This document shows positions 1 through 58,627 of a stretch of 64,000 bases of DNA, one piece after another. The DNA is from Vairimorpha necatrix (taxonomy: Eukaryota): the NCBI GenBank assembly GCA_036630325.1, contig CP142735.1, positions 1 to 64,000 of the forward strand, read 5' to 3'. The notes beneath the pieces were generated by a model, which did not search any database, was not told where the DNA came from, and was given only the letters and a program-made list of their open reading frames with translations. The position numbers and the translations under genes are program-made. Numbering within the stretch: the stretch's first letter is position 1; each line of letters starts with the position of its first letter.

Positions 1-3000
1 TAACCTACCTAACCTACCCTACCTAACCTACCTACCTACCTACCTACCTACCTACCTAACCTACCTAACCTACCTACCTAACCTACCTAACCTACCTAAC
101 CTACCTAACCTACCTACCTACCTAACCTACCTACCTACCTACCTAACCTACCTAACCTACCTAACCTACCTAACCTACCTACCTACCTACCTAACCTAAC
201 CTACCTACCTACCTAACCTACCTACCTAACCTAACCTACCTACCTAACCTAACCTACCTACCTAACCTACCTAACCTACCTAACCTACCTAACCTACCTA
301 ACCTACCTACCTAACCTACCTACCTACCTACCTAACCTACCTAACCTACCTAACCTACCTACCTACCTAACCTAACCTACCTACCTAACCTACCTAACCT
401 ACCTAACCTACCTACCTACCTAACCTACCTAACCTACCTACCTAACCTAACCTACCTAACCTACCTAACCTAACCTAACCTACCTACCTAACCTACCTAC
501 CTACCTACCTACCTACCTACCTACCTAACCTAACCTACCTACCTAACCTACCTAACCTACCTAACCTACCTACCTACCTAACCTACCTAACCTACCTACC
601 TAACCTAACCTACCTACCTACCTAACCTACCTAACCTACCTACCTACCTAACCTAACCTAACCTACCTACCTAACCTACCTACCTAACCTACCTACCTAA
701 CCTACCTACCTAACCTACCTACCTACCTACCTAACCTACCTAACCTAACCTACCTAACCTACCTAACCTACCTACCTACCTACCTAACCTACCTACCTAC
801 CTACCTACCTACCTACCTACCTAACCTACCTAACCTACCTAACCTACCTACCTACCTACCTAACCTACCTACCTACCTACCTAACCTACCTAACCTACCT
901 ACCTACCTAACCTACCTACCTAACCTACCTACCTACCTACCTACCTACCTAACCTACCTAACCTACCTAACCTACCTAACCTACCTACCTAACCTAACCT
1001 AACCTACCTACCTACCTAACCTACCTACCTAACCTACCTAACCTAACCTACCTAACCTACCTACCTACCTACCTACCTACCTACCTACCTAACCTAACCT
1101 ACCTAACCTACCTACCTACCTACCTACCTACCTACCTAACCTACCTAACCTACCTACCTAACCTACCTACCTACCTACCTAACCTACCTACCTACCTACC
1201 TAACCTAACCTACCTAACCTACCTAACCTACCTAACCTACCTAACCTACCTACCTACCTACCTAACCTACCTACCTACCTAACCTAACCTACCTAACCTA
1301 CCTAACCTACCTACCTAACCTACCTAACCTACCTACCTACCTACCTAACCTACCTACCTAACCTACCTACCTAACCTACCTACCTACCTAACCTACCTAA
1401 CCTACCTAACCTACCTAACCTACCTACCTACCTACCTACCTAACCTACCTACCTAACCTACCTAACCTACCTACCTAACCTACCTACCTAACCTAACCTA
1501 CCTACCTAACCTACCTACCTACCTAACCTACCTACCTAACCTACCTACCTAACCTACCTACACCTACCTAACCTACCTACCTACCTAACCTAACCTACCT
1601 AACCTAACCTACCTAACCTACCTACCTAACCTAACCTAACCTACCTACCTACCTAACCTACCTACCTAACCTACCTACCTACCTACCTAACCTACCTACC
1701 TACCTAACCTACCTAACCTAACCTAACCTACCTACCTAACCTACCTACCTAACCTACCTAACCTAACCTAACCTACCTACCTACCTAACCTACCTAACCT
1801 ACCTAACCTACCTACCTACCTAACCTACCTACCTAACCTACCTACCTACCTAACCTACCTACCTAACCTACCTAACCTACCTACCTACCTACCTAACCTA
1901 CCTACCTAACCTACCTAACCTACCTAACCTACCTAACCTACCTACCTACCTACCTAACCTACCTAACCTAACCTACCTACCTAACCTACCTACCTAACCT
2001 ACCTACCTAACCTAACCTACCTAACCTACCTACCTACCTACCTAACCTACCTACCTACCTAACCTACCTACCTACCTAACCTACCTACCTAACCTACCTA
2101 CCTACCTACCTAACCTACCTACCTACCTAACCTAACCTAACCTACCTACCTAACCTACCTACCTACCTAACCTACCTAACCTACCTAACCTACCTAACCT
2201 ACCTAACCTACCTAACCTAACCTACCTACCTACCTAACCTACCTACCTAACCTACCTAACCTACCTACCTAACCTACCTAACCTACCTACCTACCTACCT
2301 ACCTAACCTACCTAACCTACCTACCTAACCTACCTAACCTAACCTACCTACCTACCTAACCTACCTACCTAACCTACCTAACCTACCTACCTAACCTACC
2401 TACCTACCTACCTAACCTACCTACCTAACCTACCTACCTAACCTACCTAACCTACCTACCTACCTAACCTACCTAACCTACCTACCTACCTAACCTACCT
2501 AACCTACCTACCTACCTAACCTAACCTACCTACCTACCTACCTAACCTACCTACCTAACCTACCTACCTAACCTACCTACCTAACCTACCTACCTAACCT
2601 ACCTACCTAACCTACCTAACCTACCTAACCTACCTACCTACCTAACCTACCTAACCTACCTAACCTACCTAACCTACCTAACCTACCTAACCTACCTAAC
2701 CTACCTAACCTACCTAACCTACCTAACCTACCTAACCTAACCTAACCTACCTAACCTAACCTACCTAACCTACCTACCTACCTAACCTACCTACCTACCT
2801 ACCTACCTAACCTACCTAACCTACCTACCTAACCTACCTACCTACCTACCTAACCTACCTAACCTACCTAACCTACCTACCTACCTAACCTACCTACCTA
2901 CCTACCTAACCTACCTAACCTACCTAACCTACCTACCTACCTAACCTACCTACCTACCTAACCTACCTACCTAACCTACTACCTAACCTACCTACCTACC

Positions 3001-3663
3001 TAACCTACCTACCTAACCTACCTACCTACCTACCTACCTAACCTACCTACCTAACCTACCTACCTACCTACCTACCTAACCTACCTAACCTACCTACCTA
3101 CCTAACCTACCTACCTACCTAACCTACCTACCTACCCTAACCACCTACCTACCTAACCACCTAACCTACCTACCTACCTACCTACCTACCTACCTAACCT
3201 ACCTACCTACCTACCTACCCTACCTACTACCTACCTACCTAACCTACTAACCTACCTACCTACCTACCTACCTAACCTACCTACCTAACCTAACCTAACC
3301 TACCTACCTAACCTACTACCTAACCTAACCTACCTACCTACCTAACCTACCTAACTACCTACCTAACCTACCTAACCACCTACCTAACCACCTACCTAAC
3401 CTACCTACCTAACCTACCCTACCTAACCTACCTAACCTACCTAACCTACCTAACCTACCTAACCTACCTAACCTAACCTACCTACCTAACCTAACCTAAC
3501 CTAACCTAACCTAACCTAACCTACCTAACCTACCTAACCTACCTAACCTAACCTACCACCACCACCTACCTACCTACCTACCTACCTACCTAACCTACCT
3601 AACCTACCTAACCTAACTTACCTAACCTAACCTAACCTACCTAACCTACCCTACCTAACCTAC
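1..3663 (-). repeat. Telomeric array of interspersed TAGG and TTAGG units (CCTA/CCTAA on the + strand), degenerating in the proximal ~550 bp
   Basis: Continuous CCTA/CCTAA units from base 1. Variant units (ctactac, accacc, cccta) become frequent after ~3130. A C-rich + strand at the window start fits a left chromosome end. Confidence 0.97.
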
Positions 3664-3823
3664 ACGTAAGCTTTTAGCCCTCAAACCTGTCTGAATCTTT
3701 TGTTTAAAAAATTTATTAATTAACTCAATCTGAAACTAAAATAAATGAAAATCGAAAATTTGTTGATAAATTTTAACTAATTATCTCTCAATTCAATAAT
3801 TTTTTTTCTGATTAATGATTATA

Positions 3824-6800
3824 TGTTATACATTTATTTAAGAATAGTTCAACCCTAACATCCCCCTCCAAACAGGTAGTCCCACGTTACAAGCTTCTAA
3901 CTTTCCATTTTTAGAATCTTTTAGGTCTTAATATCGTTTTTAGTGTATCTTCCGCCATCAGTCCTTACAATATAAGAATCATTCTAACACTTTCCCATTA
4001 TTTTCAAACATTTGTAAATCTTCCTTTCATATTTTTCATCTATTTACCCAAATTTTCTCTTCTTGCGATTCTCACAGCCTGATCTACTTCAAATTTTTCT
4101 CTATGCCTTTGAATGAACCTACTTGCATACACACCCTTTTCATCGTTTTCAATAAAAAATAAATCTCATTGTTCTTTCCATGCTTCCATTGGTGTACATT
4201 TTATCGCTGTGTGTAGAGTATTATTATTGGTTCTTTCAGCTTGTTCTAGTTTTTCCTCTGGGTTTCCTTCATTTTCAATGATCATCGATTCCCTTATTGT
4301 TCAAATACATCGTTCTATTCTTCCATTACTCTCATGAGCTTCTAAACCGACTTTTTATTGCATAATTTCGTTTTCTTTACACCAAGTTACAAACCTCCAA
4401 CTGAAAAATTTCTTACCGTTATCCGTAATATATTCATCTAAGCATCTTTTTCTAAAATTTTCGTAATAACATCACTTCCCATATTTTCCATCTTTGCGCC
4501 CCATACTCTTCTCGTAAAGGAGTCAGTCCCTAATCACCGTCTCTTTCTTTTTCCCAAATATCCATTATGTCTAAAGCTTTTTCTAATTTCTTAATATTGT
4601 TACAAAAATGCAACCTTCGGTCGTTTTTCTGTTATTAATGCTACATACTTGACAATTTTTTAGCGTTGTGATTATCTTGTCCAATACCTGGCCAGTACAG
4701 TCTTTGTTTTTTCTTATAATAAGTTTTTTCACTCCTCGATGATTTAATTCCTCATGAACTCTACGAATTTCTGTCTCTCTTAGTTCTTTTTTAGCATTTC
4801 TTTGATTTCTCTTGTTAAGAAATCTAATAGTTTTTACCTTCTCTTTTAACCATGCGCTTTTTTCTTTTCCTTTCAATTGTTTTTGGGTCCGTTTCTCTCT
4901 TTCGCTGCTTTCTTTCACTTTGTTATTTTTAAATTGTCTACTAAGAGCATCCACATACGTCTCCCATTCGCCTTTTACATATTCAATAGTAAAACCATAT
5001 TCTTGTATATATTATATCTATCTATTTATTTTGTTATTATGAAAAAACGATTTGTTTTGAATCTCAGCCAGTCTTTTATGATTTGTCATTTAATATAATT
5101 TGCTTCCCTCAAATCGGATTCGAATTTCTTTATTCTAAATAACACTGCCAACGTCATTTTTTCATTAATCATATACCTTTTTTCTGTTGCTGTTAACATT
5201 TATAATGCTCATTGTATCGGAATCCACAACCCTTGTCTTCTTGCAATAGTATAGCTCAAATTTCCGTATCGCATGCATCCGTTCTTACTCTAAATATTTT
5301 TTAACTATCTTCTATTTTTAATTTTTTCACATTCTTTAAACCCTCTTTGATATCCATAAGAGCTCTTTCCATATCTTCGGACCATCCCCATTTAACATCT
5401 TTTTTAGTGCTTCTGTAAGACGTGCTGTCCGTTAAGCATATTGGGTAATAAAATCTCTAAACCAGCCTGCCCGTCCCTCAAATCTTCTAAGATCTTTTAT
5501 GTTGTTAGGCCCTCTGTATTCTAATCTCTTTTGCTTTTAATTTTGTTAGGTGTAATGTCTTCTCCGTTAATTGATACTTCAAGTAGTTTTACTTCTCCTT
5601 TATATTTTATTTTTTTTTTAGTTTCTTTTAATCCACATTCGTTAAGTTTTCGAATTACTTGTTTTAAAAAAATTTCGTGTAGATTTCTATCTCTTGCATA
5701 AATAATAATATTATCCATGTACACCTCAACGCTCTTGCCTCTAAACTTATCTAAAATTCCGTTAATCATATTTTTCATTATATGTGGATCATTTTAAATC
5801 CCATTACAATGCTATTCCATTTGTTAACTCGAACAATTATCTCAAAATCTTTCTTTTTTTATTTGAGCTTTCTCAATTTTATATGATAGAATTCTAACTT
5901 CAAGTCCAAAACCATAGATAATTTAGAACCTTCCGTTGCCCTAATAATGTCTCTAATCAATGGCAATTCATACGGATCTTTTTAAACCAGTTCGTTTGAA
6001 GCCATCAAATTACTTCTCAATTGTACTTCACTATTTGGTTTTTCTATTGGCTTAATTAGGCTTCTCCATTTGCTCTTTGTCCTTCTGATAATACCTCTAA
6101 TTTCTAATAAATTAATATACTTTTCTTAAAGATAATCAGAAATATTTTGTCTTTTTTTAATTACTTTCACTCCTTGTTTTGTTTTGATAGAACATTTTCC
6201 CCCTGTTTCGTATTTTATTTACTTCTTCTTTTCCTAATACCTCTGGAAATTTTCCTTCCAATTCTTCATGTTTATTAATATTTTTTCTTCTTTTATCTTG
6301 GTTTGTATTTTTTACATAAAAACTGTTTCTTGAGTTCTCTCTTTAAACCTCCACTGATAGTTTATATATAAAATCATTTCCTTTTAATATTTTCATTTTT
6401 CTATTTTCACGAATGCTAAAAAATTTAACACTTTTATTTTCATTGTTCTCTTCCTGTCTTCCTTTACGCTCAAAAAACCTCTAGCTATATGTATAATTCT
6501 TCTACATTTAAAACAATGTTTTTCTTCTCGTCTTTGATTTTATCAGTTTCTTCATAACACTGCTACAGTTCTAGTCAGTTATCCTTTAATCTTCTTTTTA
6601 ATTTTTCTTTCATAACCTCTACTATATCTTCTAGTTCTCTACTCCTTATTTTTTCCTTGTTCATGTTCTCTTCCTCTTCAACAACTAATTTATCAATTTC
6701 ATCAATAATATCATTCCAAAAAATCATATTGATTAAATTTTTATCAATAAAAAAAACCTGAAGTTCAGAACTTACTTGTTTTATCGACTGCTTCGTTGTC

Positions 6801-6958
6801 ACATCTTTTACATCTTTCTGCATTCTGATGATTGCTTCTACTCTCCGAGCTTCTTTTAGTAATTTTCTCTTCTCTTAAACACAGGTCTCACTTGGTACCC
6901 TTTCGTCTTTTGTGTTTGCCATGTTATACATTTATTAATAGGAGGTCCATCTTTAACA
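3824..6958 (-). mobile_element. Decayed Ty3/Gypsy-like LTR retrotransposon with 37-bp LTRs (3824-3860, 6922-6958) and 5-bp TSD TTATA
   Basis: TGTTA...TAACA direct repeats, TTATA at 3819-3823 and 6959-6963, PPT GGAGGGGGA at 3861-3869 and a TGG-starting PBS next to 6921. Fragmented RT (VYMDNIII), integrase HHCC (H..LNHRG...CQVC) and gag pieces in ORFs 4583-4954, 5521-5778 and 6575-6823. Confidence 0.88.
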
Positions 6959-9900
6959 TTATAATTAAAACACAAAGTATTTTTGGTATAATTCTGCTAA
7001 TAAATTTATGTAATATTATATTGTAAAAGTATGAAATATGTATTCGTTTTGTAATATATATTATTGTAAAAAAAGTCATTTTTGTGTTTTAACATATTTA
7101 TTACTCGAAATATTCGTATTATACTAAAAAAATAATATTTTAGGGATATTATAAGATAACTTAAATCTCGAATGCGGTACTAACGCATATATACAGACAC
7201 AGGAGCTTATACTTTTTAGGAAAGCTTATGAGAATCACTTTGAATAAAAAAATTGGATCTAAATTCCAAAAAAGTTTAAGGGCGTAATAATTTGGAAACA
7301 TTAAGGACTAGACTCCAAGGTTTATTTGAAAATACAATACGAATAACTTATTACATTTAAAAATTTAACCTTAGAATTATGTGAAATTAAAATAGATCAA
7401 TTAAAGTAATTAAGATTTATCTAAATTAATATGATTTAGTTTATTTTTATAAAATAAAAAATTTTAAAAAAAATTTGTTTTTTTATATTTTGTTATTGAA
7501 TATTAATATCTACTCGGATGCTGCATAGGGATGCGTCTTCTTCTAATGTACAATCTTATTTTTCTATGTATTTGCCCAACTGTTCAGGAAGTCTTTTATA
7601 ATTACAAATGTTATTGTGTCTATTTTTAATGTTCTCTTTGGGATTTAATTTTTTATGGTAGAAAATATAATATTTTAAAAATAAAAGCGTGTGAAAATAT
7701 TGGACAATTGAAAAATACTTCCTATATAAAATATATTTGATATGTGATCATAATGCCCTAGATATGTTTTTTTTATACTTATATATTTTCTTTTATAACC
7801 GTTAAATTTACTTCTTGATTGATCTTCATATAATTTCAATTATGAAGAGAATTAGTTTGATATGTTTGATAACCAGTTAATATTGATAAATTTTTGCGAT
7901 TTAGATATGTTGTATATTTGAAATTATTGCTTAAAAAATTGCGAGTAGTTTAAAAATAACCTATCTTTATCTCTGAAAATGTTTTACATAATGTGTTATG
8001 TTAAAATGTTATTTTTTACGATAAAACCAATTTATGGATTATTAAAAAATTTTAAGTTCTAATTAATCATTAGATTGATTTCATTCTGCGATAATCAAAA
8101 TGTTTATTCCAAAAAAATTCATAAAAATTTTTATATTAAATATTTAAAATTTAAATTATCAATTTATCTTTATATTTTTTTATCAATTAATATTTAAATT
8201 AAATATTATTTAATAATTTTTAGAAATCGTCAACCGCATCTATGTTTAATATGTAATTGTGTTTATGCATAAAAATATTTTCTGTCATTATTAAAGATAA
8301 GATTTGTTTTTTAATTTATATGCTCTTACATTATATTATCCTTAAATTTATATAAATATCTATTAATTAGTTGCATTGGGTTTTGTTTATACTTTTTATT
8401 AACCCTTCTTAGCTTTTATTGATTTATATTTTTTAATTCTTCGGTTAGTGTAAGATCTTTTTCATAAAAGTTACTAATTCTGTATTTATTTTGATTTTAT
8501 TTTTACTATAATTATAGTATTAATAATAAATACGTGGAATATATGATATTTACTATAAAAATTCAAATGAAGAAATACGAAATTCATTTCAAGCCTAGTT
8601 TTGTGTATAAATTTGCAATTAGTATATATATATATATGGATATATATTGATTATCTTATTATTTTAAATGTATTTAATATGTTTTCTGACCATTATTAGA
8701 TTTATTTTTTAGATATTTATCATTATTTTCATTGAAATAATTTTTTGTATTTTATTTTATAATATTTTACAGATTATAACCATTATTTTTTAAAATACTG
8801 TTGTAATAAAGGATAACAGAATGAAATGTTGTTCGTTATGTTCTTCTATAGATGTTTATATTTAATTTTCGTCGTATGTCTTTATGTTTCTTTGAGACTT
8901 TTATTTTTTCTTTATGAATTTTCTTGATATTATTTGGTTTATATATGCTACATTTTTATAATAATTTTAAAAACTTAAGTTAAGCATAAAAAATGAGTTT
9001 TTAGATATGAAGAACTTTCCAATGCTTCCTTGCGATAAATAGTATTGAATGTTTTTTTATAAGAATGATTTAAATCATTTATAAAACTTTTTGAAATATT
9101 GATTGTAATTTATAACTTTAATCTACAATTTTTAAAACCCTCCGTGATATGGTTTCTTTTGAAATTCAAACATATAAAAATTTTAAATAGATTATTATTA
9201 ATATTATATAAATTTTTAGTCATTGAATCATATGTTTTCGTGTAGGTTAAATATATTTAAAGTTTAATAATGTAGGTGTTATACATTGCATTGTTAATTT
9301 TCGATTGATATATTATTTTTAAAAATCATTAAGTCGTTATATTGTTTAAAACTTAATAGTTATTTTATTCAGTCGTATGTGTATTATTAAGAGCAACATT
9401 TGAAATATAAAATTCAATTTAATGATCAAAAAATATTATTTTCGTTTTAGTGGTTGTGACTTCTAGCTTAATTAGTCGTCTAAATTTAATTGTATGAAAT
9501 TTTCTTCTTTTTACTTATCTAAAATTATTTGAACGTTTAGTTTGAATGTTTTTATTAACTATTCTAAAAGAAAATATTTATTTTCAAAACAAGTTTTATT
9601 CCAATATGTTTTTTTGATAAAAAAAAGTTATCCTACTACTTTAAATATATTTTCTTTTAAATATTGTTTTTGTAATATCAACCTCAATTATCTTTATTAA
9701 AATTGCATTTCGAAATATATTAGTTTTTTCAAAGATTTTTTTTGGCATTATGTTTATCTTACTTGTAGATAAATCTTTGGGTATTATAAAATTTATATTG
9801 AAGTAAAAAATTTTCTTGACCTTTTCATACTTAGATTCAATCTAACGCATTTTGTTGAACTATAGACAATATATAATATCATAATTAAATTTCAATTTTA

Positions 9901-12900
9901 CTTTAAAAATATTGACTCTATCGGTTTTTATCGAGTTTTTGAATAAAAAATTATAAATATCTAATAATTATAAGACAAAGAACGAAATTTTTTATTTTAT
10001 AAAAGAAATTATTAAGTTTAGTCTTTTAACTAATAATATTTCATTTTTTTGCTAAATAATATAATTTTTTATTTTTTTTTTAATATGTGTAAATGAATTA
10101 TTATATATTCTAAAAATTTAATTTCTTAAGAATACTTTTAAATTTTTGAGACAAACGATATATAAATATTATTTAGATGTTTTTTCTAAGATTCTTATTT
10201 GTTTTGAAGTATTACCATAATGTTAATATTTAATATATGCAATTCTAACTTTTAGACTTTTCTTTTATTTTTTTGTAAATAATCTTGAAAACTTCCAGGT
10301 GAAATATTATATAGTATTATAATTGAGAAAAATTTATCTTGAATTGACATGTTTTTAGTGGATTTTTAATTTTATTAAGCTAGTGTTTATCATGTTTTTT
10401 TTATGTTATTACTCTTTATATTAATTAAAATTATTTTCTGCTAAGTAAATAAATTTTGAAATTTATATTCCGTCTGCGTGTAACTACGGTATATAAGCTT
10501 TTTTATAAATATAGCATTTCATGATAAATTCTTATTCGTTATTAAGTGTATTGGATTTATATGCATTTCTATCCCCCAATTTCTGGTTTTATTTTTTTGG
10601 AATATGCGACGTTTTTTTCAAAATCTCGAAAACGTTTTATATACAACAACTTTGTATTTGTTTGTATGTGCTATTGTATTTATGTAATTATTCATAATTA
10701 AAAATTTACTTATAATTTCTTACAATATTATAATATGGAAAATGTATTTAAGTAGGTTTCCCTAGGATTTTTTAAAATCAATAAAATGCATGTTGTTTCT
10801 AAGTAAAATTCTTTTTACCATTACTGAACGATTGTACAATGAATAGGTCTTATTTTATATTGTCAATTTAATATAATTTTCTTCAATACTTCTAATTATA
10901 CATTAAATAAATGATTTCCCATGAATATATAATTTTAGGATAATAGTTGATTAAATTTAGTTTTTTTTTATAATATTTCGATTTTCATACTTAAATTTTG
11001 ATCAAATTATCATAAAAAAATATTATACTTAACGGATTTAGAAAGTATTATATATAACAAAAGAGCGATTATCAAATATTTAACCGATAGATTTTTTTAT
11101 TGGTTTGTTCTTATTTATTCGAAATTAATAATAAAATAATATTTTTTTATAAGTATAAAAAGTATTGATGATTTTACTTTTTAGAATTTTTTTGGTCATA
11201 ATTTCTAATTTTGTGTGGTCAATATGATTGTAAACAACAAATTAATATTTGTGACAATTGTTTTTTACCAACTTCGATTTCAAAAGTCTACAATGTTTTA
11301 TAACTGAATCTTCTTTAGAATTCTATCAATCAAAAAAATGTAATATCCTAGGTTAATCGAAATTCGTTTAAAATTTTTATATAATATTTTTTTTCGTTTT
11401 TTAACCATTAGTAATTATTATACTTAATAATGTGTACATATTGGTCATATATAAATTTAATATAGTTGGTTTTTAAGTATACGTTTCATTTAGAAAATCG
11501 TCTGATATGTTCTAGATAATTAAAAAACTTCATTGATAGTTTTAATTGTACTTAAATTATACTATATGCAATATTGGGGTTTATTTTTGTATTCTTGGCG
11601 TAGATTTTAATCTAAAAGAAAATTGTATTTCATCTAATATCTTTTTTGTAAATCTTATTTTGAATTCTTATGTATTTATCTTGCAAAGCAATATGAATAA
11701 ATCATATGTATATCTTTTCTTTATAATCCCTTTACTATCTAGTTATAATAGATGAATATTATTTGTATCATTTCTAAAACAGTGCTATTTTTGATCGTAA
11801 AAATAATTCCATTTATTTTCTTTCGTACTTATACCAAATGAAAAAAGGAAAGATCAAATTTAAATTATCTTGTTATTACCTATAATTTAGTTAGATTGAG
11901 TGTAGAATTCGTTTTAAATTTTAAAAGATATTTTTTTCTTTCTACCAATATGCTCGTTCTTATTTTTTCTTTATTTATCTGTTCTCCATAGATAAAACTT
12001 TGCTACTTCTAAGTTATAAGGCTAAAAATGTTTTGCCATTAATAACTTTATGATTGTGTACTTGCTTCATAGATATTCCTTGCCCTTCATATGCAAACTT
12101 TTTTTTTAAATTTTATTTTTATTGTAATAATTTTTTAGCCACGTAAGTTAAAGGTTAATTATTTTGCATGGATAAACACATATTGTAAATTTTTCATTTT
12201 TTGTTGTATTATTGGTGTGTTGGAACGTTGTTGGTGAATATTTGACAATTAAACTTCGACAACTGTCCTTATGATGTAATCGTTAATACACGTTTCCAAA
12301 AAACCTTTGACTTTAGTTTATCAAGTTTTGGTTTTTTAACATTTATTTAAATACTTTAATGCATATACCTAAATTATTTTAGATAAATTTAGAATCTTAT
12401 TTCTTGTATATAATATATCCTAATTTATTCAACAAATATATTTTTATACTAAATTATATGTCTTAAATGATTAATATATAGTGTCAGACATTTCTTGTAA
12501 TTAAATCACTCAATGATTGTGTTTTCATTTCTTTTTGAAAGAATCTTATTTACCTGTTTTGAAAAATATGTTTTTACCTTGCAAAAAGAAATAAATATAT
12601 CGTTTAATTAACGTATTATGTCCAAAGCCGATTTAATATGATTAACTTTACTTCAATTTTTTATTTTTATGGCGATTCTGCACATAATGCGTTCATTATT
12701 TTTTTATGAACAGCAAATTATATACTTACGTACTCATACGAAAAGACAAATAAATCTAAATTTCTTAAAATATTAATTATACAGATACATACGTTGGCAA
12801 CCTCTAATAAAAAATGTACTAAATTGTGCAAAAGTTAATTTTCGAAATAACAATTATAATATTTATTCAGATGTATCAGGCTGCAGACCTGTACTGACGG

Positions 12901-12906
12901 TACGGC

Positions 12907-13110
12907 TTCCAATTAAACAATGATTATTGCGCTGTCAAACATCTCAGAGTATTGTAAATAAACATTAGACGTGTTTGACATTCACAAACTAAAAGTAAGA
13001 CAAGTGCACGTCACATGAAGTACTACTAATTCAGTAGAACATCGGTTTGATGTTTGTTTACATCTCAAAGAGTTTGACAGTTAATCTAATTAACTATTTA
13101 AACGGAATTT
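12907..13110. mobile_element. Degenerate inverted-repeat (MITE-like) element
   Basis: ctgtcaaacatctcagagtattgtaaataaacat near 12932 pairs imperfectly with atgtttgtttacatctcaaagagtttgacag near 13050-13080. Paralog at ~42600-42800. Confidence 0.5.
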
Positions 13111-13294
13111 ACCCCTGATTCACAATTTCGATGAGCAGAAAACAAGAAAATAATATAAATCAATATGTGAGTTTAGACTCACTCTCCTCTACTTCGGATC
13201 AGGCTACATTTTAGATCATAAGATGTGTATATACACCATAAAAAAAAAATTATTAATTTGTCATATATTTATTTCTTGTTTTTATTTTTAATTC

Positions 13295-22886: not shown

Positions 22887-23205
22887 CAACATATAAAAGG
22901 CTTATTGAGTTAATTTATCATGTAAGTTAGATAGCACAGTTTCCCTCGGTATCGCTCACTAGATTCAGCTCTTCATAGACATTGGTTTATGTGGAATTAT
23001 TTATGTTTTTCAACTCCAAATTTTTAGCTTCATTCTACTATACCGACATCGCTTGTTCAACAGCCGCCATATTCGCCAATGCGCTTAAAGCTCTAACCAC
23101 TTCTTCTTCTGCATAATCTTTATCGTATCTTGTTCGTCGTTCCAAAGAGATATACTCTGGAGTTTTCTTCATCACATGAGACGGAATGTATGCTTCCAGA
23201 AATGT
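22887..23205 (-). mobile_element. 3' fragment of RLE-type non-LTR retrotransposon (family A)
   Basis: Reverse complement aligns to 55860-56184 (EAYI...KKT...SLERR and the 3' UTR). Paralog at 56771-57095. Confidence 0.8.
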
Positions 23206-23789
23206 TTAGATTTCTGCAGAATGCAAATAAGATCTTAAAATATTAATATATATGTACACAATAATAATATAGTTTAGAAATAATGAATTCCTAAACTTTT
23301 AAAATTTTACAACTGTAACTATTATTTTGGAAAAAATATTTTATTTTGACATTACGATTGATTTTTAGTAAAAATTTAATTAAATTTTGAACTTCTTCAA
23401 ACAAGTCAAGAGAATTTAAAAAATTTAAAGGCCGTATTAAATTTCAAAAAATATTATCTGGTCATCTTTTTAATTGAGTTGTTACTCTGTAGACAAAGAA
23501 AAATTAGTAATAAATTTCAAATAAAGATCATTGAATAAAGAGTAATTAACATTTTTGTTTAGTTTTTGATTGTATATTTTTTAATTAATTTATAAAGTAA
23601 AATTTGTTTTATTTTTGCTATTAAATCCTTTAAATTCAAAATCTACGCTCTTTTCTATATTTTGTTTATTTTAAATTTCCCTCCTAAAATATTAAATAAA
23701 ATTTTTTTGTTTATGGGCAATGAGAAATCAAAGATTGGATTGGTGCAATAAAGAGATAAGACAAGTTTGGAATGACAATGAAGTTTTAA

Positions 23790-27214: not shown

Positions 27215-28685
27215 GTACGATTATATGCATTTTCAGCTGTTCTTAATTTTTTCATATTTTGCAAGATTTGTCTTCTTATATATATACAAGAAGAAAATGA
27301 AAAAATAACAAATTCCATAAATGCTTTAAAAACAAAAAAAGATACACAAAAAGTACTTGTAAAACAATAATATGAATTTATATGTAGTCTTAGATGTTCT
27401 TAATTTTTTCATATTTTTCGAGATTTGTCTTCTTATATATATATATACAAGAAGGAGATGGAAAAATGCCAAATTTCATAAATGCTTTAAAAACAAAAAA
27501 AGATATTCAAAAAGTACTTGTATTACAATAATGTGTATTAATATGCATTTTCAGCTGTTCTTAATTTTTTCATATTTTGCAAGATTTGTCTTCTTATATA
27601 TATATATACAGGAAGGAGATGAAAAAATAACAAATCTTTTAAATCGCTCAAAAACAAATAAAGATACTCAAGTGTCACTTATATAACTATAATATGAATT
27701 TATAAGCATTTTCAGAAGTTCTAATTTTTGTATATTTTTCAAGATCTGTCGTCTTATATATATATATACAAGAAAGAGATGTAAAAATAACAAATTTCTT
27801 AAAAGCTTTAAAAACAAATAAAGAAACACAAAAAGTACCTGTATAACTATAATATGAATTTATAAGCATTTTCAGAAGTTCTTAATTTTTTCATATTTTT
27901 CAAGATTTGTCTTCTTATATATATATATACAAGAAAGAGATGTAAAAATAACAAATCTTTTAAATGCTTTAAAAACAAATAAAGAAACACAAAAAGTACC
28001 TGTATAACTATAATATGAATTTATATGTAGTCTGAGATGTACTTAATTTTTTTAATTTTTCAAGATCTGTCTTCTTATATATATATACAAGAAGGAGATG
28101 AAAAATGGCAAATTTCATAAATGCTTTAAAAACAATTAAAGTACCCAGGTGTCACTTATATAACAATAATATGAATTTATAAGCATTTTCAGAAGTTCTT
28201 AATTTTTTCATATTTTTCAAGATTTGTCTTCTTATATACATATATACAAGAAGGAGATGAAAAATGGCAAATTTCATAAATGCTTTAAAAACAATTAAAG
28301 TACCCAGGTGTCACTTATATAACAATAATATGAATTTATAAGCATTTTCAGAAGTTCTTAATTTTTTCATATTTTTCAAGATTTGTCTTCTTATATACAT
28401 ATATACAAGAAGGAGATGAAAAATGGCAAATTTCATAAATGCTTTAAAAACAATTAAAGTACCCAGGTGTCACTTATATAACAATAATATGAATTTATAA
28501 GCATTTTCAGAAGTTCTTAATTTTTTCATATTTTTCAAGATTTGTCTTCTTATATACATATATACAAGAAGGAGAAGAAAAAATAACAAATCTTTTAAAT
28601 GCTTTAAAATCAAATAAAGATACTCAAGTGTTGCTTATATAACAATAATATAGATTTATATGTAGTCTAAGATGTTCTAAATTTT
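27215..28685. repeat. Tandem satellite, ~159-bp unit, about 9 copies
   Basis: atgaattt starts near 27372, 27694, 27854, 28015, 28171, 28330 and 28489. Units starting at 28171, 28330 and 28489 are nearly identical. Confidence 0.95.
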
Positions 28686-29310
28686 ACTACATTGCTATTT
28701 CCTTCTTATATGTTTATAAAGTTATAGTGATTTATCTATAAAAATTATTTGAAATTATTTTTCTCTTAAAAATATCATCTAGAAAACCAATACTTCTTAA
28801 CTTTACATACATATACTATACATGTTAATTTTTTTTGTTTAGAAGTTTAAGTTAATTTTCTTCTTCTTTCAAGTTCATTATCCTTCTTATATATACATAT
28901 ATATATTTCAATTGATTTTTTAAAAAGAGTATAAGTTCTGTTTTTCTTAGTACCTCAATGATTTGAATATATTAACCAATATTTCGATACAGTATGTTCT
29001 CTTTGTTGTTAAAATACGTTATGTAAAAGCTTTTTTAATAATTTAGCTTCATAGTGTATATAGTATATTATTGTTTTATAATTACAATTCTAAAGGTTAA
29101 ATTCCTATATTTACACTATTAAAAATTATGGTTATTTTACACAACTTCTTCATACATCGTTCATTCAAAAACTTAAAGGGCTAACAAACCATAATTAATG
29201 ATCTAAATATACAAAAATATAAAAAATCGAAAATACTTTGTTTCCCTTTGTTTTGCGGACTTAAATTGTTTCTTAAGTTAAGAATTGGTCTTTTTCTAGA
29301 TAAAAAATAT

Positions 29311-32392: not shown

Positions 32393-33511
32393 TCTGTTAT
32401 AAAACCATATAGTAAATCTTATTTTATATTTTTCATTTTAGTTTATTTATGATTATAAGCTTGATCATTTATAAAATATTGAATTGTGACTAATGATATT
32501 AAATTAAACATATTAGAAGGTTTTTTTTTGTTCTTAATGATTTAATTCTTTAGTATATTTATTGATATACTATTATTAAATTATTAAAATTTGTATATTC
32601 TACTATTTTCGTATGACTGAAATTTTTTAATAAAAAAATATTAATTTTTATATTTAAATAACTTTTAAATAAAAACTAAACAAATTTTCTAAGAAGAAAA
32701 CTTTAATCTAAAAAAATTGCTTTTAATTCTAGATAATTTTCTAATAATTATTAATTGTAAACATTTTGAAATAAACATCATTTTTTGACTTTGAGAAATT
32801 ATGCCTATATTATGAAGTTCTAAATGCTAAATTTGTAAACAATTTGCGATAAGTTTTTTTTAATATTTATTTTGATATATTACAGATTTTTTATAAAATT
32901 AAAAGATCTTTTAGATCAGTGAATATGACTCTATGGAACGAAAAACAAAACAAATATTGTTCTTGTCATGTATTGGATAAAAAATTACTAATTTATTTTT
33001 CTTTTTTAAATGTTTTCAAATAACATTTTATGTTCGAATAAAAGTGCGTAATTATAAAATTAAAAATTGATATGGCGAAAAACTTGTCATAGTATATTTT
33101 ACTGTATGATTTAACTTACTATTTGTTTTTTCTATTCTTTATTAGGCTTCTCTGGATAAATTTTTGATTAATGTTGAAGAGTCGATATATAGTCTATTTA
33201 TAGAATATAGAAATTGTATATAATGCTTTCGGTACAACATATTCTAATTTTGTGGCTAGAATTCAAAAATAAATTAGAGTTTAGTTTTTCTCTTCATCAA
33301 ACTTTACATTTTTTAATATAACAGATACTCCTACCTAACATACCTACATAACCCGTAAGCTTTTAGCCCTCAAAACTTCCTTAATCTTTTGTTTAAAAAA
33401 AATTCAATTTAATCAATATGTAACTAAACTTAATAAAAATTGATAATTTGTTGATAAATTTTAACTAAATATCTATTTATTCAAGTATTTTTTTTCAGAT
33501 TATTGATTATA

Positions 33512-36500
33512 TGTTATACATTTATTTAATAGGAAAGTTCAACCCTAACATCCCCCTCCAGGCGGGTAGTCTCACGTTACAAGCTTCTAATTTTCCGTTT
33601 TTATAATCTTTTAGGTCATAATGTCGTTTCTTAATGTATCTTCCGCTATCAGTCCTTACAATATAAGAATCATTCTCGCACTTTCCCAATATTTTACCAA
33701 CATTTGTAAATCTTCCTTTCATACTTTTCATCTATTTACCCAAGTTTTTTATCTTGCGATTCTCACAGCCTGATCTACTTTAAATTTTTCTCTATGCCTT
33801 TGTTTAAAATTTCTTGCATACACACCCTTTTTATCGTTTTCAGTAAAGACTTCTTTTCCTTGGTCCTTCCATGCTTCCATTTGTTTACATTTAATCGCTG
33901 TGTGTAGAGTGTTATTATAGGTTCTTACAGCTTGTTCTAGTTTTTCCTCTGGGTTTCCTTCTTTTTCTTTGATCATTGATTCCATTATTGTTCTAATACA
34001 TCGTTCTATTCTTCAATTAACCCTATGAGCTTCTAAACATACTTTCCATTGCATAATTCCGTATTCTTTACACCAAGTTACAAACCTCTCACTGACAAAT
34101 TCCTTACCGTTATCTGTAATATATTCATCTGGGCATCCATCTTCCTTTATCCATTTTTCTAAAATTTTCGTAATAACATCACTTCCCTTATTTTTTATCT
34201 TTGCGCCCCATACTCTTCTCGTAAAGGTTCAGTCCCTTATAGCACGTCTCTTTCTTTTTCCCCAATATCCATTACGTCTAAACTACTTTTTCTAATTTGT
34301 TAAATGTTGTTATAAAATTGCAACCATAGGTCGTGTTTCTGTTATTAATGCTACATACTTCACAATTTTTTAGGTTGTGGTTATCTGGTCCTTCATACCT
34401 ATCCAGTACCATCTTTGTTTAATCTTATAATGTGTTCCCTTAACTTCTCGATGATTTTATTCCTCATGAACTCTACGAATTTCTGTTCTCACTTATTTCT
34501 TTGTGTTGTATTTATTAATTTCTCCTGTTGAGAACTTCCAATAGTTTTTGCCTTCTCATTTAACCATCGCTTTTTTTCTTTCGCTTTCATCTGTTTTTGG
34601 GTCTGTTTCTCTCTTTCATCATTTCAATTACTTCGTTATTTTCAAATTGTCTACTAAGAGCATCCACATACGTCATCAATTCTTCTTTTACATATTCAAT
34701 AGGTAAATCGAACTCTTGTTCGTTTTTATCCATCTCTTAATTATGTAATTATTGAAAAACGGTTTGTTTCTAATCTCGGCCAGTCCTTTATGATTTGTCA
34801 TTTATTGAAATTTGCTTCCCCCAAATCTGACTCGAATTTCTTTTTTCTAAATAACGCTGCCAACATCTCTTTTTCACTGATCGTATACTTTTTATCTGTT
34901 GGTGTTATCATTTTTGATGCCTATTGTATCGGAATCCACCTATCTTCCTTGTCTTCTTGCAGAAGTATAGCTCCAATTTCCGTATCGCATGCATCCGTTC
35001 TTACTCTATACATTTTTTTACTATCTACTATTTTTAATATTTTTATAATCGTCAATCCATTTTGATATCCATAAAAGCTCTTACCATATCTTCGAATCAT
35101 TCCCAATTACTATCTTTTTTTAGTGCTTCTGTAAGACGTGCTGTCCGATAAGCATCTTTGGGAATAAAATCTCAAAACCAGCCTGCCACCCCAAAAATCT
35201 CTTAAGCTCTTTCATGTTGTTAGGCCTTCTGTATTCTAATGTCTCTTGCTTTTTAATTTCGTTTGGTGTAATGTCTCTTCCGTTAATTGTTACTTCAAGT
35301 AGTTATACTTCTTCTTTATATTGTATCTTTTTTAAGTTTCTTTTAATCCACATTCGTTAAATTTTCGAATTACTTGTTCTAATAAATTATCGTGTATATT
35401 ACTAAAACTTACATGAATGATAATATCATCCACGTATACCTCATAACTTATCTAAAACTCCAGCAACATTTTTTACATAATACAGGGAGATTTTTAAATC
35501 CCATTACCATGCTATTCCATTCGTAAACTCTAACATTTATTTCAAAAGCTGTCTTATGTTTTTGAGCTTTCTTAATTTCTATATGATAGAATCCTTTCTT
35601 TAGGTCTATAACCATAAATACTTTAGAACCTTCCGTTGCGTTAATAATGTTTCTAATTATGTCAATTCAAACAAATCTTTTTAAACCAGTTCGTTTAAAG
35701 CCATCAAATTGCTTCTCAATTGTACTTCACCATTTGGTTTTTCTATAGTCTTTATTGGGCTTCTCAATTCGCTCTTTGTCCTTCTGATAATACATATACT
35801 TTCTAATAAATTAATATACTTTTCTAACTTTTCTCGAATTATAAGAAATATTTTGTTCCTTTTTAACTACTTTCACTCCTTGTTTTGTTTTGATAGAACA
35901 TTTTCCTCCTGTTAAGTATTTTATTTTCTCTTCGTCTTTTCCTTATACCTAAAGAAATTTTCCTTCCAATTCTTCATATTTATTAATATTTTTTCTTCTT
36001 TTATCTTGGTTTGTATTTTTTACATAAAAACTGTTTCTGGAGTTCTCTCTTTCTACCTCCACTGGTAGTCTCAATTTAAAATCATTTCCTTTTAATATAT
36101 TCATTTTACTATTATCATGAAAGCCAAAATATTTACACTTTTATTTTCATTATTCTCTTCCTGTCTTCCTTTACGCTCCATACAACCTCTAGGTATATGT
36201 AAAATCCTTCCACATATTAAACAATGTTTTTCTTCTCGTCTTTGATATTGAAGGTTTTTTTCTGGCACTGCTACAGTCCTAGTCTGTTATCCTTTAATCT
36301 TCTTTTTAATTTTTCTTTCATAACCTCTACCATATCTTCTGGTTCTCTACTCCTTATTTTTTCATTGTTCTTATTCTCTTCCTCTTCAACAACTAATTTA
36401 TCAATTTCATCAATAATATCATTCCAATTAATCATACTAATTTAATTTTTATCAATAATAAAATCCTGAAGTTCAGAACTTACTTGTTTTATCGACTGCT

Positions 36501-36665
36501 TCGTTGTCAAATTTTTTACATCTTTCTGCATTCTGATGATTGCTTCTACTCTCTAGCTTCTTTTAGTAATTTTCTCTTCTCTTAAACACAGGTCTCACTT
36601 GTTACCCTTTCGTCTTTTGTGTTTGCCATGTTATACATTATTTAATAGGAGGTTCAACTTTAACA
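33512..36665 (-). mobile_element. Paralog of the short-LTR Ty3/Gypsy-like element (LTRs 33512-33550 and 36629-36665, TSD TTATA)
   Basis: Same LTR/PPT/PBS/TSD layout. RT YVDDII near 35430, RNase H TDACDTEIGAILLQ, integrase C-part AVRTYNNTLH, and zinc knuckle CLICGRILHIPRGC near 36190-36230. Confidence 0.88.
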
Positions 36666-39600
36666 TTATAATTAAAACTTAAAGTATTTTTGGTGTAATT
36701 CTGTCGTTAAATTTATGTAATAATATTTTGTAAAAGTATGAAATTACTTCTTTAATTTGTAATATATATTATTGTAAAAAAGGTCATTCTTGTGTTTTAA
36801 CATATTTTTTACTGGAAATATTCGCATTATACTAAAAAAAAAAATATTTTAGGGATATTATACAAATAAATTAAATCTCGAAAGCTGTACTAACGCTATA
36901 TACAGACACAGGAGCTTATACTCTTTATGAAAGCTCATGATAACCACTTTGAATGATAAAATTGCAATATTATTCAAAGAAAATACAGGTACGTAATTAT
37001 TTGAAAACAATAAGGACTAGATGCTAGTGTTTGTTTGTAAATACAATAGAAATAACTAATTACATTTGAATATCTCACTATAAAATTATGTGATATAATA
37101 TAGATCAATAAAAGTTATTAAGATTTATCTAAATTAATATGATTTAATTTATTTTTATTAAATAAAAAATTTTAGAAAAAAATTGTTTTTTAATTTTTTA
37201 TAAATATTTATATCTACTTGGCTGTTGCATAGAGATGCGGCTTCTTCTAATGTACAATTCTATTTATCTATGTATTTGCCCAACTGTTCAGGAAGTCTTT
37301 TATAATTACAAATGTTATTGTGTCTATTTTTTATGTTCTCTTTGAAATTTAATTTTCTATATGGAAAAATATAATATTTTAAAAATAAGAGGGTGTGAAA
37401 ATATTGGATAATTGAAAAATACTTCCTATATAAAATATATTTGATTATATGATCATAATACCATAGACATGTTTTTTATACTTTTATATTTTCTTTTATA
37501 ACCGTTAGATTTGCTTCTTGCTTGATCTTCATATAATTTCAATTATGAAACAACCAGTTCGATCTAAGTGATAACCAGTTAATATTGATAAAAATTGCGA
37601 TTCAGATATGTGGTATATTCAAAATTATTGCGTAAAAAATTTCGGATAGTTTTAAAGTAACCTATCATTCTCTATGAAAATGGTTTTCTTAATGTGTTAT
37701 GTTGAAATGTTATTTTTTATGATAACACCAATTTATGAATTACTAAAAAATTTTAATTTTCAATTAAATCATTAGATTGATTTCATTCTACGAAAATCAA
37801 AATGTTTATTCCAATTAAAATTTAATTTATCAATTTATTATTATATTTTTTTATCAATTAATATTTAAATAAAATATTATTTAATAATCTTTAGAAATCG
37901 TCAACAGCTTCTATGTTTAATATGTAATTGGGTTTATGGATAAAAATATTTTCTGTCTTTATTAAAGATAAGATTTGGTTTTTTAATTTATAAGCTCTTA
38001 CATTATATTATCCTTAAATTTATATAAATATCTATTAATTTTCTGCATTGGGTTTTGATTATACTTTTTATTAACAATTATTAGTTCTTATTGATTTATA
38101 TTTTAAATTCTTCAGTTAGTGAAATTTTTTTTCGAAAAAATTACTAATTCTGTATTTATTTTGATTTTATTTTTATCATAATTTTTGTATAAATAATAAA
38201 TACGTGGAATATATGATATTTACTAGAAAAATCCATAAGAATAAATACGAAATTCATTTCCAGCCTATTTTTGTGTATAAATTTACAATTTGTATGAATA
38301 TTGATTATCTTATCTTTTAATTTGTATTTAAAATGTTTTCTGACCATTATTATATGTATTCCAGAGATATTTATCATTATTTCCATTAAAATAATTTTTT
38401 GTATTTTATTTTATAATTTTTTTACCGATTATAACCAAAAATTTCAAAATACTGTTGTAATAAATGATAACAGAATGAAATGTCGTTCGTTGTGTTTCTC
38501 TATAGATGTTTATATCTTATTTTCGTAGTATGTCTTTATGTTTCCTGGAGACTTTAAATTTTTTTTTATGAATTTTCTTGATATTATTTGGTTTATATAT
38601 GCTACATTTTTATAATAATTTTAAAAACTTAAGTTAAGCATAAAAATGAGTTTTTAGATATGAAGAACTTTCCAATGCTTTCTTGCGATAAATAGTATTA
38701 AATGTTTTACTATAAGAATTATTTAAATCATTAATAAAACTTTTTGAAATATTTATTGTAATTTAAAAATTTTAAGTTTTAATTTTCTAAAACCCTCCGT
38801 GATATGGTTTCTTTTAAAATACAATTATATTAAAATTTTTAATTGATTATTTTTAATATTTTTATAAATTATTCGTAATTTAATCATATGTCTTCGTGTA
38901 GGTTGAATATATCATCATGTTTTATAATGTAGGTGTAATATATTGCATTTTAAATTTTCGATTGATATATTATTTTTAAAAAAAGATTAAGTCGTTATAT
39001 GTTCTAAAATATTTACTTATAGTAATCAGTCATATGTGTATTATTAAGAGCGAAATTTGAAAATATAAAATTCAATTTAATGAAGAAAAAATATTATTTT
39101 CGTTTTAGTGGTTGAGACTTCTAGATTAGGTAGTCGTGAAAATTTAATTGTATGAAAATTTCTTCTTTTTACTTATCTAAAATTATTTGAACGTTTAGTT
39201 TGAATGTTTTTATTAACTTTTTTAGATGAAAATATATATTTTCAAAACGAGTTTTAGTCGAATATGTTTTTTAAAAAAAAGTTATCCTACTACTTTAAAT
39301 ATATTTCCTTTTTAAAATTATTTTTGTTATATTAACCTCAATTATCTTAACTGAAATTGCATTTCGAAATATATTAGTTTTTTCAAAGATTTTTATTGGC
39401 ATTATTTTATTTTACTTGTATATAAATCTTTGTGTATTAAAAATTTATATTGAAGTATAACTTTTCTTGACCTTTTCATACTTAGAATTAATCTAACGCA
39501 TTTTATTGAATTATTGACAATATATAATATCAAAATTAAATTTTAATTTCTTTATGAAAATTCTGACTATAACGGTTATATTCAAATTTTTGATCTAAAA

Positions 39601-42600: not shown

Positions 42601-43167
42601 CAAACAATGATTATTGGTACTGTCAAACATCACCAAGTATTGTAAACAAACTTTAGACATGTTTGACATTCACAAACTAGAAGTAAGAAAAGTGCATGTC
42701 ACATGAAGTACTACTAATTTAGTAGAACTTCGGTTTCTTGTTTGTTTGTTTACATCTCAAAGAGTTTGACAGTTAATCTAATTAACTATTTAAACGGAAT
42801 TAACCCCCGATTCACAATTCCGATGAGCAGAAAACAAGAAAATAATATAAATCAATATGTTAGTTTAGACTCACCACTTCAACTTCGGATCAGGATTCAT
42901 TCCAGATATAAGATGTGTAGATACTCCATAAAGAAAACAAAATTATTAATTTGTCATATATTTATTTCTTGTTTATTTGATTAAATTATATCTAAATATG
43001 AAAAATATAGTTTATTTCAAAAAATAACATAATAAATTCCATTGTTATAATATATTTAAACAATCTTTACAAATGAATACAACGTAATTACTATTATGTT
43101 TTCTATTATAAAAAATTACATATTTGCGAATATGCTAACGCAGTTTTATATTTCTAGTATATTCTGA

Positions 43168-55674: not shown

Positions 55675-56184
55675 GTTGGTATAACCAACCAGGATCGACT
55701 TACTATAGTTGAGAATGAAAAACTAAGAAAATATGACCTTCTTGCAAATGAACTGGGACTAATACATAAATCCCGGACAAGAATAGTTCCTTATGTAATG
55801 ACATGGGATGGAGTGGTGACCAAATATCACAGAAAGTACATCAAGGAGCTAGAAATCCAACCCTACCTGGAAGCATATATCCAGTCTATTGTGATGAAGA
55901 AGACTCTAGAGTCCATCTCTTTGGAACGACGACGAGGATACGATCAGGAGGATGCAGGAGAAGAAGAAGTGGCTAGAGCTGTAAGCGCACTAGCGAATAT
56001 GGCGACTGTTAAAGAAGTGGTGTCGGCAAAGGGGAATGAAGCTGCTAAAGTGAAGTTGGAAAACATTAATAATTCCACAGAAACCAAAGTCTGTGAAGAG
56101 CTGAATCCCATGAGCGATACCGGGGAAAGCTGTGCTATGAATATCTAAACATAATTGAAAATTAACTCAATAAATCTTTTATTG
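55675..56184 (+). mobile_element. 5'-truncated RLE-type non-LTR retrotransposon (family A) with 13-bp TSD TTATGTTTTCTTA
   Basis: Translates VGITNQDRLTIVENEKLRKYDLLANELG...PYVMTWDG (restriction-like endonuclease C-terminus). TSD at 55662-55674 and 56185-56197, empty site ~22305-22317. Confidence 0.9.
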
Positions 56185-56770
56185 TTATGTTTTCTTATAT
56201 AAAATAAAAATATATAAGATTTTCTTTGATCCGAATATACATTTCTAATATATATACATGTTATACTAAAAAATAATATACATTTTACACGGCAAAAACG
56301 AGTATATATCCTATTTTATATACAAAATACTTTCATATGTGATCGCAAATTTTAAGATTTACTGGCATCGTATTTCAATTTCTCTATTATATCTGGCAAT
56401 TTTGTTATTCTTATTTTCCATACCCTCTAAAGTAAATTTTTTTAAATAATTTTTTCAACAAGTTTAAACTTTCAATTGTAAGAATATGATTGGTAAGTAT
56501 TTGATCTGCTACAACTATATATGAACTACATTCTTTTAATAATTCAGACTACAAAATAATAAAAACATATTTATGTGATTTAACTAATATTCTTTATTGA
56601 GATTTTGTTTTTCTTAGATACTGTGATGTACATTACTACAACACATGGACAGATGTCAAAATTATGTCAACCGTTTCGGATGGCATGTCAAGTTGGGTCA
56701 CACAATCAAACGAAAGTTGCATGGTCGTTACTACATTCGTAAGTACGCCAATGTTTGTATCATGTGTTGA

Positions 56771-57095
56771 CAACATATAAAAGATTTATTAAGTTAATTT
56801 ATCATGTAAGTTAGATTAGCACAGTTTCCCTCGGTATCGCTCACTAGATTCGGCTCTTCATAGACTTTGGTTTATGTGGAATTATTTATGTTTTTCAACT
56901 CCAAATTTTTAGCTTCATTCTCCTATACTGACATCGCTTGTTCAACAGTCGCCATATTCGCTAGTGCGCTTAAAGCTCTAGTTACTTCCTCCTCTCCTGC
57001 ATAATCTTTATCGTATCTTGTTCGTCGTTCCAAAGAGATGGACTCTGAAGTTTTCTTCATCACATTAGACTGAATGTATGCTTCCAGAAATGTTT
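56771..57095 (-). mobile_element. 3' fragment of RLE non-LTR family A (paralog of 22887-23205)
   Basis: Inverted homolog of 55860-56184. Confidence 0.8.
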
Positions 57096-58503: not shown

Positions 58504-58627
58504 AATTAATTTATGCTAAAAATTTGTTTTATTTTTGCTATTAAATCCTTTCAATTCAAAATCTACGCTCTTTTCTATATTTTGTTTATTTTAAATTTCC
58601 CTCTTAAAATATTAAATAAAATTTTTT

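Follow-up and report, generated by a model that had tools for sequence, protein, structure and literature searches.

The window, the whole 64,000-nucleotide stretch of DNA analysed here, is the left end of contig C10 in a 15.0-Mb genome of 12 contigs. Positions 1-3662 are a telomere that mixes two units, CCTA (524) and CCTAA (298), in irregular order (TAGG and TTAGG on the other strand). Close to this array lies the remnant of an LTR retrotransposon whose terminal repeats measure only 37 bp, and a second copy follows further inward (Table 1). The initial annotation placed the first copy at 3824-6958, with a TTATA target-site duplication (TSD), LTRs of 37/37 bp and TGTTA/TAACA ends, and we located all of these; the copy lies on the minus strand. 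The inner borders it gave are equally real: the polypurine tract (PPT) adjoins 3860, and a TGG-type primer-binding site (PBS) adjoins 6922 with a spacer of 0. Its LTR lengths for copy 2, 39 bp (33512-33550) and 37 bp (36629-36665), were also accurate, and its AATAAA in each LTR stands except in the 5' LTR of copy 2, which has ATTAAA and no AATAAA.

Table 1. Features of the short-LTR element, in positions of the window. Domain borders marked as mapped were transferred from an intact sister copy.
Feature	Position	Strand	Remark
Target-site duplication, left (TTATA)	3819..3823	.	same word on both sides in 21/27 subtelomeric copies
3' LTR, 37 bp	3824..3860	-	161 bp from telomeric array
Polypurine tract	3861..3869	-	adjoins 3' LTR
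Integrase relic, broken	3999..4780	-	HHCC 4628-4780, core 4310-4571, GPY/F-like 3999-4045; mapped
RNase H relic, broken	4997..5303	-	mapped
Reverse transcriptase relic, broken	5406..6270	-	YxDD position 5710-5721; mapped
Short linker at the expected protease place	6271..6473	-
Single CCHC zinc-knuckle relic	6474..6515	-
Mini-Gag helical domain relic	6657..6901	-
PBS for tRNA-Arg	6909..6921	-	12/13 match; also encodes first Gag residues
5' LTR, 37 bp	6922..6958	-	AATAAA present; in-frame ATG 6931-6929
Target-site duplication, right (TTATA)	6959..6963	.
Copy 2, same insertion in duplicated subtelomeric block	33512..36665	-	LTRs 33512-33550 and 36629-36665

Both copies in the window are dead. Their longest open frames are 142 aa and 87 aa, and comparison with an intact sister copy reveals 33-34 frame-breaking indel runs in each (33 in copy 1). 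The LTR pairs are eroded as well, with identical columns at 29/38 in copy 1 and 34/39 in copy 2, and the PBS of both copies carries one mismatch to tRNA-Arg(ACG). The repeat nevertheless exceeds chance: 5,000 random 37-mers from the window reach a score of 33 at most, and the LTR pair of copy 1 reaches 45. An Integrase_H2C2 match can still be found within 4583-5011. The initial annotation overlooked the dead state of the copies, an ORF start inside the LTR and a missing protease.

Nor are the two copies, the evidence of the initial annotation, independent, and copy 2 does not count as a second observation. Copy 2 lies in a 9.7-kb duplicated block (3636-13281 versus 33330-42974, 87%, continuing in pieces) and is therefore the same insertion as copy 1. 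The subtelomeric block as a whole occurs twice in the window, about 29.7 kb apart (3636-25644 versus 33330-61308, 87-95% in pieces), and its inner occurrence begins at a short telomere-like remnant near 33329-33350.

A genome search with the element, hereafter family A, returned at least 44 matches (best 40 of 123 candidates scored). Among the matches listed, 28 copies are full length, and 27 of these have common flanks and a mean identity of 88%. They span 23 of the 24 contig arms; 26 of the 27 sit 159-229 bp from telomeric repeats and are oriented toward them, and all 27 are broken, with longest frames of 65-188 aa. Telomeric repeats also lie about 160 bp away from inner copies of the element on C3, C4, C7 and C8. 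The shared flanks show that a single ancestral insertion, about 160 bp from a telomere, was carried passively to nearly all chromosome ends with its subtelomeric block, presumably by ectopic exchange. The locus is thus a fossil, usable as a marker of exchange between chromosome ends. The 28th copy (L011) sits in the interior of C9 between unrelated flanks, with a TSD of its own, LTRs of 38 bp and a PBS matching at 13/13 positions. It too is broken, and no intact family-A copy is present among the 28 full-length matches listed. Because this insertion is independent and has 38-bp LTRs, family A had LTRs of 38 bp while it was mobile.

The window's two copies, being one eroded insertion with an all-AT TSD, could by themselves be read as the stump of a longer LTR in a single aberrant insertion, or as a chance match in AT-rich DNA. 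Independent insertions leave such readings virtually untenable. A PBS+LTR junction motif matched 73 places in the genome versus 2 for a reversed control. The 45 of these 73 loci outside the shared subtelomeric insertion comprise 36 full copies of a sister family (family B), two B copies that are interrupted, and seven old relatives that have diverged, among which one could be parsed with ends of 37/36 bp. Family B shares about 75% local DNA identity with family A (65% over a global alignment). Its full copies are 3060-3076 bp long and 99.5% identical on average, with no flank similarity between copies. Their LTRs are 38 bp, identical within the pair in 28/36 copies and differing between the two LTRs in the other 8; the 5-bp TSD is perfect in 31/36 and comprises 22 different words. 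Two copies (L063, L067) each carry a private LTR variant in both of their LTRs, as predicted by reverse transcription, in which both LTRs derive from one template. An unbiased alignment of the 400 nt upstream of the PBS detected no longer repeat ending there. There are thus dozens of young insertions with perfect TSDs and identical 38-bp pairs. Family members with normal long LTRs, which would speak for an aberrant copy, were sought and did not appear: both L011 and family B keep 38-bp LTRs. Open frames of at least 1000 aa persist in 15/36 family-B copies.

Short LTRs extend beyond these two families. A search with a related protein located at least 51 further places (51 of 1608 candidates scored), and 18 of the 20 loci examined among them have short terminal repeats. 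Five related families (C-G) have LTRs of 48-49 bp and a tRNA-Pro PBS, with 105 junctions of this type genome-wide and 0 for the control. The minimal-LTR lineage proposed in the initial annotation is thereby borne out by separate insertions with other flanks and TSDs.

Several observations add detail to these families. In family D (L124, L126, L136) the LTR ends in TA rather than CA, and the terminal A that forms an ATG with the PBS is kept. One locus (L200, G000:C2:1173600-1180800) is a family-D copy nested inside a family-B copy in opposite orientation. The site just after a CCC motif in the LTR segregates within families (L061, L063, L077; L123, L124, L136), and some copies carry different states of it in their own two LTRs, reflecting two-template events or recurrent mutation. 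Descent of L063 from L061, which would have placed the U3 boundary, found no support, as L063 is no closer to L061 than to two other copies. In one sequencing run, which may be the assembly's own source, contigs at two young copies (L169) collapsed and ended inside the LTRs, and no empty-site joint was recovered. A scan of JGI metagenomes gave 30 loci, three of them close to the clade and none with both ends, hence no LTR length for another organism. We also rejected public 3.0-3.3 kb contigs with whole homologous ORFs as evidence of short LTRs, because such contigs break at repeats of any length; they show a coding-only interior only.

The window contains longer-LTR elements for comparison. 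At 45550-49253, on the minus strand, lies an intact gypsy element that does bear a protease; it has a frame of 1217 aa, its 110-bp LTRs are identical, and 3 nt separate LTR and PBS. Solo LTRs occur in its family. At 50352-52544, on the plus strand, identical 201-bp LTRs enclose a frame of 663 aa in which a CCHC knuckle and a DSG motif can be recognized; this frame contains no reverse transcriptase (RT) and has no Pfam match. Most paired relatives of this element among the matches listed are 2.0-2.3 kb long and two are 3.6-3.8 kb. It may be a mobile derivative with Gag and protease only, a mirror image of the protease-less family described here. Other repeats in the window are two Merlin/ISXO2-type transposase frames with interleaved inverted repeats (57473-59361), a tandem array repeating about every 160 bp (27221-28718), and a MITE-like inverted pair of about 335 bp, 82% alike (55851-56186 and 56772-57103), with a third copy at 22888-23215.

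Solo LTRs distinguish the short-LTR family from its neighbors. The family-B LTR has 83 matches, which resolve into 39 pairs and 5 unpaired LTRs, and none of the 5 is a TSD-flanked solo. Perfect TSDs mark as solos 7 of the 16 unpaired 201-bp LTRs checked (of 19; best 40 of 69 candidates) and 7 of the 12 unpaired 110-bp LTRs, the latter at 5 independent sites (best 40 of 99 candidates). The absence of family-B solos fits an escape of short LTRs from LTR-LTR recombination; family B is also younger.

A single ORF fills the whole interior of family B, PBS included. The first letter of its ATG is the A that closes the 5' LTR, and the PBS supplies the TG; another ATG in the same frame sits inside the LTR, 9 nt further upstream. 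The stop codon reaches 12 nt into the 3' LTR (in families C-G it lies 15-26 nt before that LTR). The protein begins with a helical domain of about 80 aa and a long helix, which lead to a single CCHC knuckle; 36 residues separate this knuckle from a helix ahead of RT, and RNase H and integrase come after. Pfam recovers RVT_1, RT_RNaseH, Integrase_H2C2 and rve in that order from the intact sister copy. YxDD, RNase H and DDE residues are invariant in 31 rows, and the best solved relative in the PDB is Ty3 Gag-Pol (E 1.6e-50).

What the protein lacks is an aspartic protease. The intact sister protein has no Pfam protease match at E up to 1, and a D[ST]G motif is absent from every frame of the knuckle-to-RT stretch in the 28 family-A copies, where this stretch is about 30 codons longer. 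The knuckle-to-RT distance is 107 aa, versus 210 aa in the protease-bearing element of the window. With no aspartic protease between Gag and RT, the element is a Ty3/gypsy derivative rather than a canonical member. Taking lineage and anatomy jointly, we are nearly certain that the window holds a decayed family-A copy of a microsporidian Ty3/gypsy-derived lineage of elements about 3.1 kb long with LTRs of 38-49 bp.

The absence of a protease is a property of a clade. Among 7,999 candidates scored, 44 homologues are set apart by a drop in score from 423 to 311 bits, the named close ones being from Nosema granulosis and Enteropsectra breve; three named entries (P0027, P0036, P0040) and P0013 match this genome or a very similar one and are not independent. 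The named close homologues, the Merlin-type transposases and the CCC-type gene starts together point to a microsporidian host. The protease motif is absent in 43/44, of which set 8/44 are partial or have no knuckle that we could find. We built a quick RT-RNase H tree of 87 rows, without bootstrap or labelled reference clades, keeping every second outgroup and leaving out P0015, P0026 and the broken window copies. In it, 46 rows form one clade (SH-aLRT 99), and P0041, just outside, has weak Gag and protease matches. A clade with a protease-keeping sister points to a single loss. The start junction has also left a trace across the clade: among the 30 homologues with a second Met close to the N-terminus, 27 have H, Y, D or N before it, against a background of 15.5%, as expected of an LTR ending xAC-A/TG. 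LTR length outside this genome can be seen directly in one published consensus only, Anncaliia algerae 'retro L'.

Selection has preserved the enzymes. Across families, RT, RNase H and integrase have pN of 0.15-0.34 versus a saturated pS of 0.73-0.97; we report raw pN and pS instead of dN/dS on account of this saturation at silent sites. Constraint is weaker in Gag than in Pol (pN 0.28-0.48 for Gag), and the linker, the would-be cut-site region, is the least conserved part (pN 0.48-0.60). Within family B, variants shared between copies are silent in 9/15 cases versus 59/200 for private variants (p = 0.02), and Gag gives no signal of selection among its 2 shared variants, both non-silent. Purifying selection on Pol indicates that the elements use their own enzymes.

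How could 38 bp serve as a complete LTR? Host genes offer a precedent. In this genome, CCC occurs within 15 nt of the first ATG in 24/52 host ORFs versus 2/52 in each of three control windows, at a CCC-to-ATG distance of 0-12 nt. In the microsporidian E. cuniculi, 5'UTRs are shorter than 7 nt with CCC just upstream, and read-through transcription is common (PMC2803860). Intact LTRs of all seven families (one copy per family) carry CCC 2-11 nt before an in-frame ATG; the CCC of family-A copy L011 is eroded in the 5' LTRs of the window copies. That host promoters consist of a CCC a few bases from the ATG suggests why such short LTRs arose here. In families A and B (L070, L011), the LTR can also form a short GGGTT/AACCC hairpin of -4 to -6 kcal/mol within its 5' half, which is absent in C-G.

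Priming follows a conventional route. The PBS matches tRNA genes of this genome at 13/13 positions, tRNA-Arg in families A and B and tRNA-Pro in C-G, which rules out that the "PBS" is mere start-codon context. A complement of the PBS, as Tf1-type self-priming would entail, was not seen in the LTR by inspection.

Combining these observations, we propose a five-step working model of the living relatives, which we regard as moderately likely on the evidence of sequence. The LTR would act as a host-type CCC micro-promoter, with RNA starting about 11-21 nt before the LTR end. The transcript's single ORF, running through the PBS, encodes mini-Gag, nucleocapsid, RT, RNase H and integrase with neither protease nor frameshift. 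A host tRNA, for which the PBS is present, would prime a very short minus strong-stop DNA, which may then transfer to the matching 11-21 nt of the 3' LTR. Such a repeat is comparable with retroviral R, which can be 16 nt, in MMTV (PMC6088434). R would thus be present, with hardly a separate U5: AATAAA lies close to the LTR end, so that cleavage about 20 nt later would put the RNA 3' end at or past the LTR end and make a separate U5 unneeded. In family D, however, no such signal lies close to the end of the LTR. The PPT would prime the plus strand, and both LTRs would be rebuilt from one template, a product seen in the paired variants; the element's own integrase would then insert it, leaving the observed 5-bp TSD. 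A micro-promoter with a short R is, on these motifs, probable. The initial annotation's view that promoter and strand-transfer homology are extremely compressed accordingly finds its match in sequence motifs, while the RNA ends are our inference.

The LTR might instead not be a promoter at all. Host read-through transcripts would then carry the element, leaving the LTR to keep integrase ends, start codon and transfer homology, and a host protease may trim the protein. The frequency of read-through transcription in E. cuniculi (PMC2803860) would suit such a scheme, as would the little room that 38 bp leave upstream of CCC. It sits poorly, however, with the intact copies of 7/7 families, in which CCC precedes an in-frame ATG at a distance like that in host genes. 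Any long host leader, moreover, would end up in strong-stop DNA and prevent the LTR from being regenerated cleanly, whereas 28/36 pairs are identical. We therefore consider read-through improbable and retain the micro-promoter.

The weakest step of the working model concerns the protein. The polyprotein would most likely stay uncut and act within a small particle of RNA and protein, not a full capsid. Two mini-Gag models (pLDDT 85.6 and 80.7) retrieved nothing above background in structure searches, with best Z of 6.3 and 6.7 and no Foldseek match at E <=0.001. The Arc C-lobe ranks only 14 (Z 5.3, rmsd 3.1, 63 aligned), and a domain of about 80 aa is, by length, too short for two lobes. A feature comparison places mini-Gag near Retrotrans_gag/Ty3_capsid clusters of 246-414 aa (score 0.88-0.90), which we treat as a lead only. 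Zinc-knuckle repeats dominated what the Gag profile retrieved, and a match to HIV CA-CTD-NC constructs was set aside as mostly knuckle.

These data leave three fates for the polyprotein, one of which is that a host enzyme may cut it. That it stays uncut in cis is, judging from the sequence, an evenly balanced proposition; cleavage by the protease of a co-resident element, which the protease-bearing elements in the same genome (45550-49253) would permit, is possible but on the unlikely side. Cleavage in trans belongs to a broader scheme in which the element is a semi-autonomous parasite: it would bring its own RT and integrase, share the packaging of co-resident elements, whose Gag and protease would enclose and cut it, and use mini-Gag as a docking module. 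Both a protease-bearing element, intact and with identical 110-bp LTRs, and a Gag-only-like element present in many copies do lie in the window; mini-Gag, about one lobe's worth, resembles Gag by features (again a lead only); and a 1:1 Gag:Pol ratio could hardly fill a shell of its own. Set against borrowing are the old single loss of the protease across the 46-row clade, the abundance of the elements and the linker, the would-be cut-site region, being the least conserved part, though cut sites often are poorly conserved. We judge such parasitism rather unlikely. A self-sufficient lineage without protease or closed capsid is a reading we entertain tentatively. In such a lineage, an uncut chain would work in an RNP, and a 38-bp repeat would serve at once as promoter, start codon, poly(A) signal, transfer homology and integrase end.

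If the shell-free, uncut reading is true, an LTR retroelement replicates here without protease or closed capsid. The family shows how little such an element may need for copying itself, and the lineage opens two questions: what the minimal U3/R/U5 of an LTR is, and whether polyprotein cleavage and a capsid are needed. Its footprint is considerable. About 180 PBS junctions (73 + 105) in a 15-Mb genome would amount to about 3-4% of the genome if most belong to full-length elements. The initial annotation anticipated that pipelines would miss the lineage, and the default minimum LTR of LTRharvest, 100 bp in Table 1 of its description (PMC2253517), indeed exceeds the 38-49 bp found here. Structure-based annotation of microsporidia may therefore undercount such elements. 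By term counts, LTR, gypsy and protease are all absent from the main text of PMC7313128. Our literature search, with the original descriptions of Nbr and Mag, Repbase and bioRxiv supplements outside its scope, returned no description of ultra-short-LTR or protease-less microsporidian elements.

Among known systems, the Ty3/gypsy (Metaviridae-type) elements, such as Ty3 or the 110-bp-LTR element at 45550-49253, share TG...CA LTRs, a 5-bp TSD, a tRNA PBS, a PPT, the RT-RNase H-integrase order and an RVT_1-type RT. Unlike them, the elements here have no aspartic protease, a Gag of only about 140 aa, and a frameshift-less ORF running from the LTR through the PBS, all within 3.07-3.2 kb. Tf1-type self-priming elements are not matched, as the PBS here is complementary to host tRNAs. 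SMART elements are non-coding, and TRIM and LARD elements are reduced, non-autonomous LTR elements that may borrow proteins in trans; Mag has a protease. In contrast to TRIM, SMART and LARD, the present lineage keeps an RT-RNase H-integrase frame under purifying selection, whole in 15/36 sister copies. Mag of Bombyx mori and grass SMART likewise have short LTRs and are cited as the smallest in the published size range, at roughly 80 bp (PMC3485330), whereas recently mobile elements here, at 38 bp, have half that.

A close known relative by anatomy is retro L of A. algerae, whose consensus in the supplement of Parisot et al. (2014; PMC4202319) is listed with an LTR of 50 bp, an ORF at 32-3049 and a total of 3127 bp. 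By eye and unaligned, its first 600 letters display TG...ACA, CCC just before an in-frame ATG, a spacerless TGG-PBS, a short Gag and one knuckle. A protein with the same N-terminus as retro L (P0225) matches the mini-Gag profile at E 1.3e-10. The same table gives 45 bp for retro S, a doubtful figure because its printed start looks longer. The words "protease" and "retro L" are absent from the main text of that paper, and its accessible passages do not remark on LTR length. As far as those passages go, a member of the lineage already stood, unremarked, in a 2014 supplement; families A and B differ from it in their LTRs of 38-39 bp and their tRNA-Arg primer.
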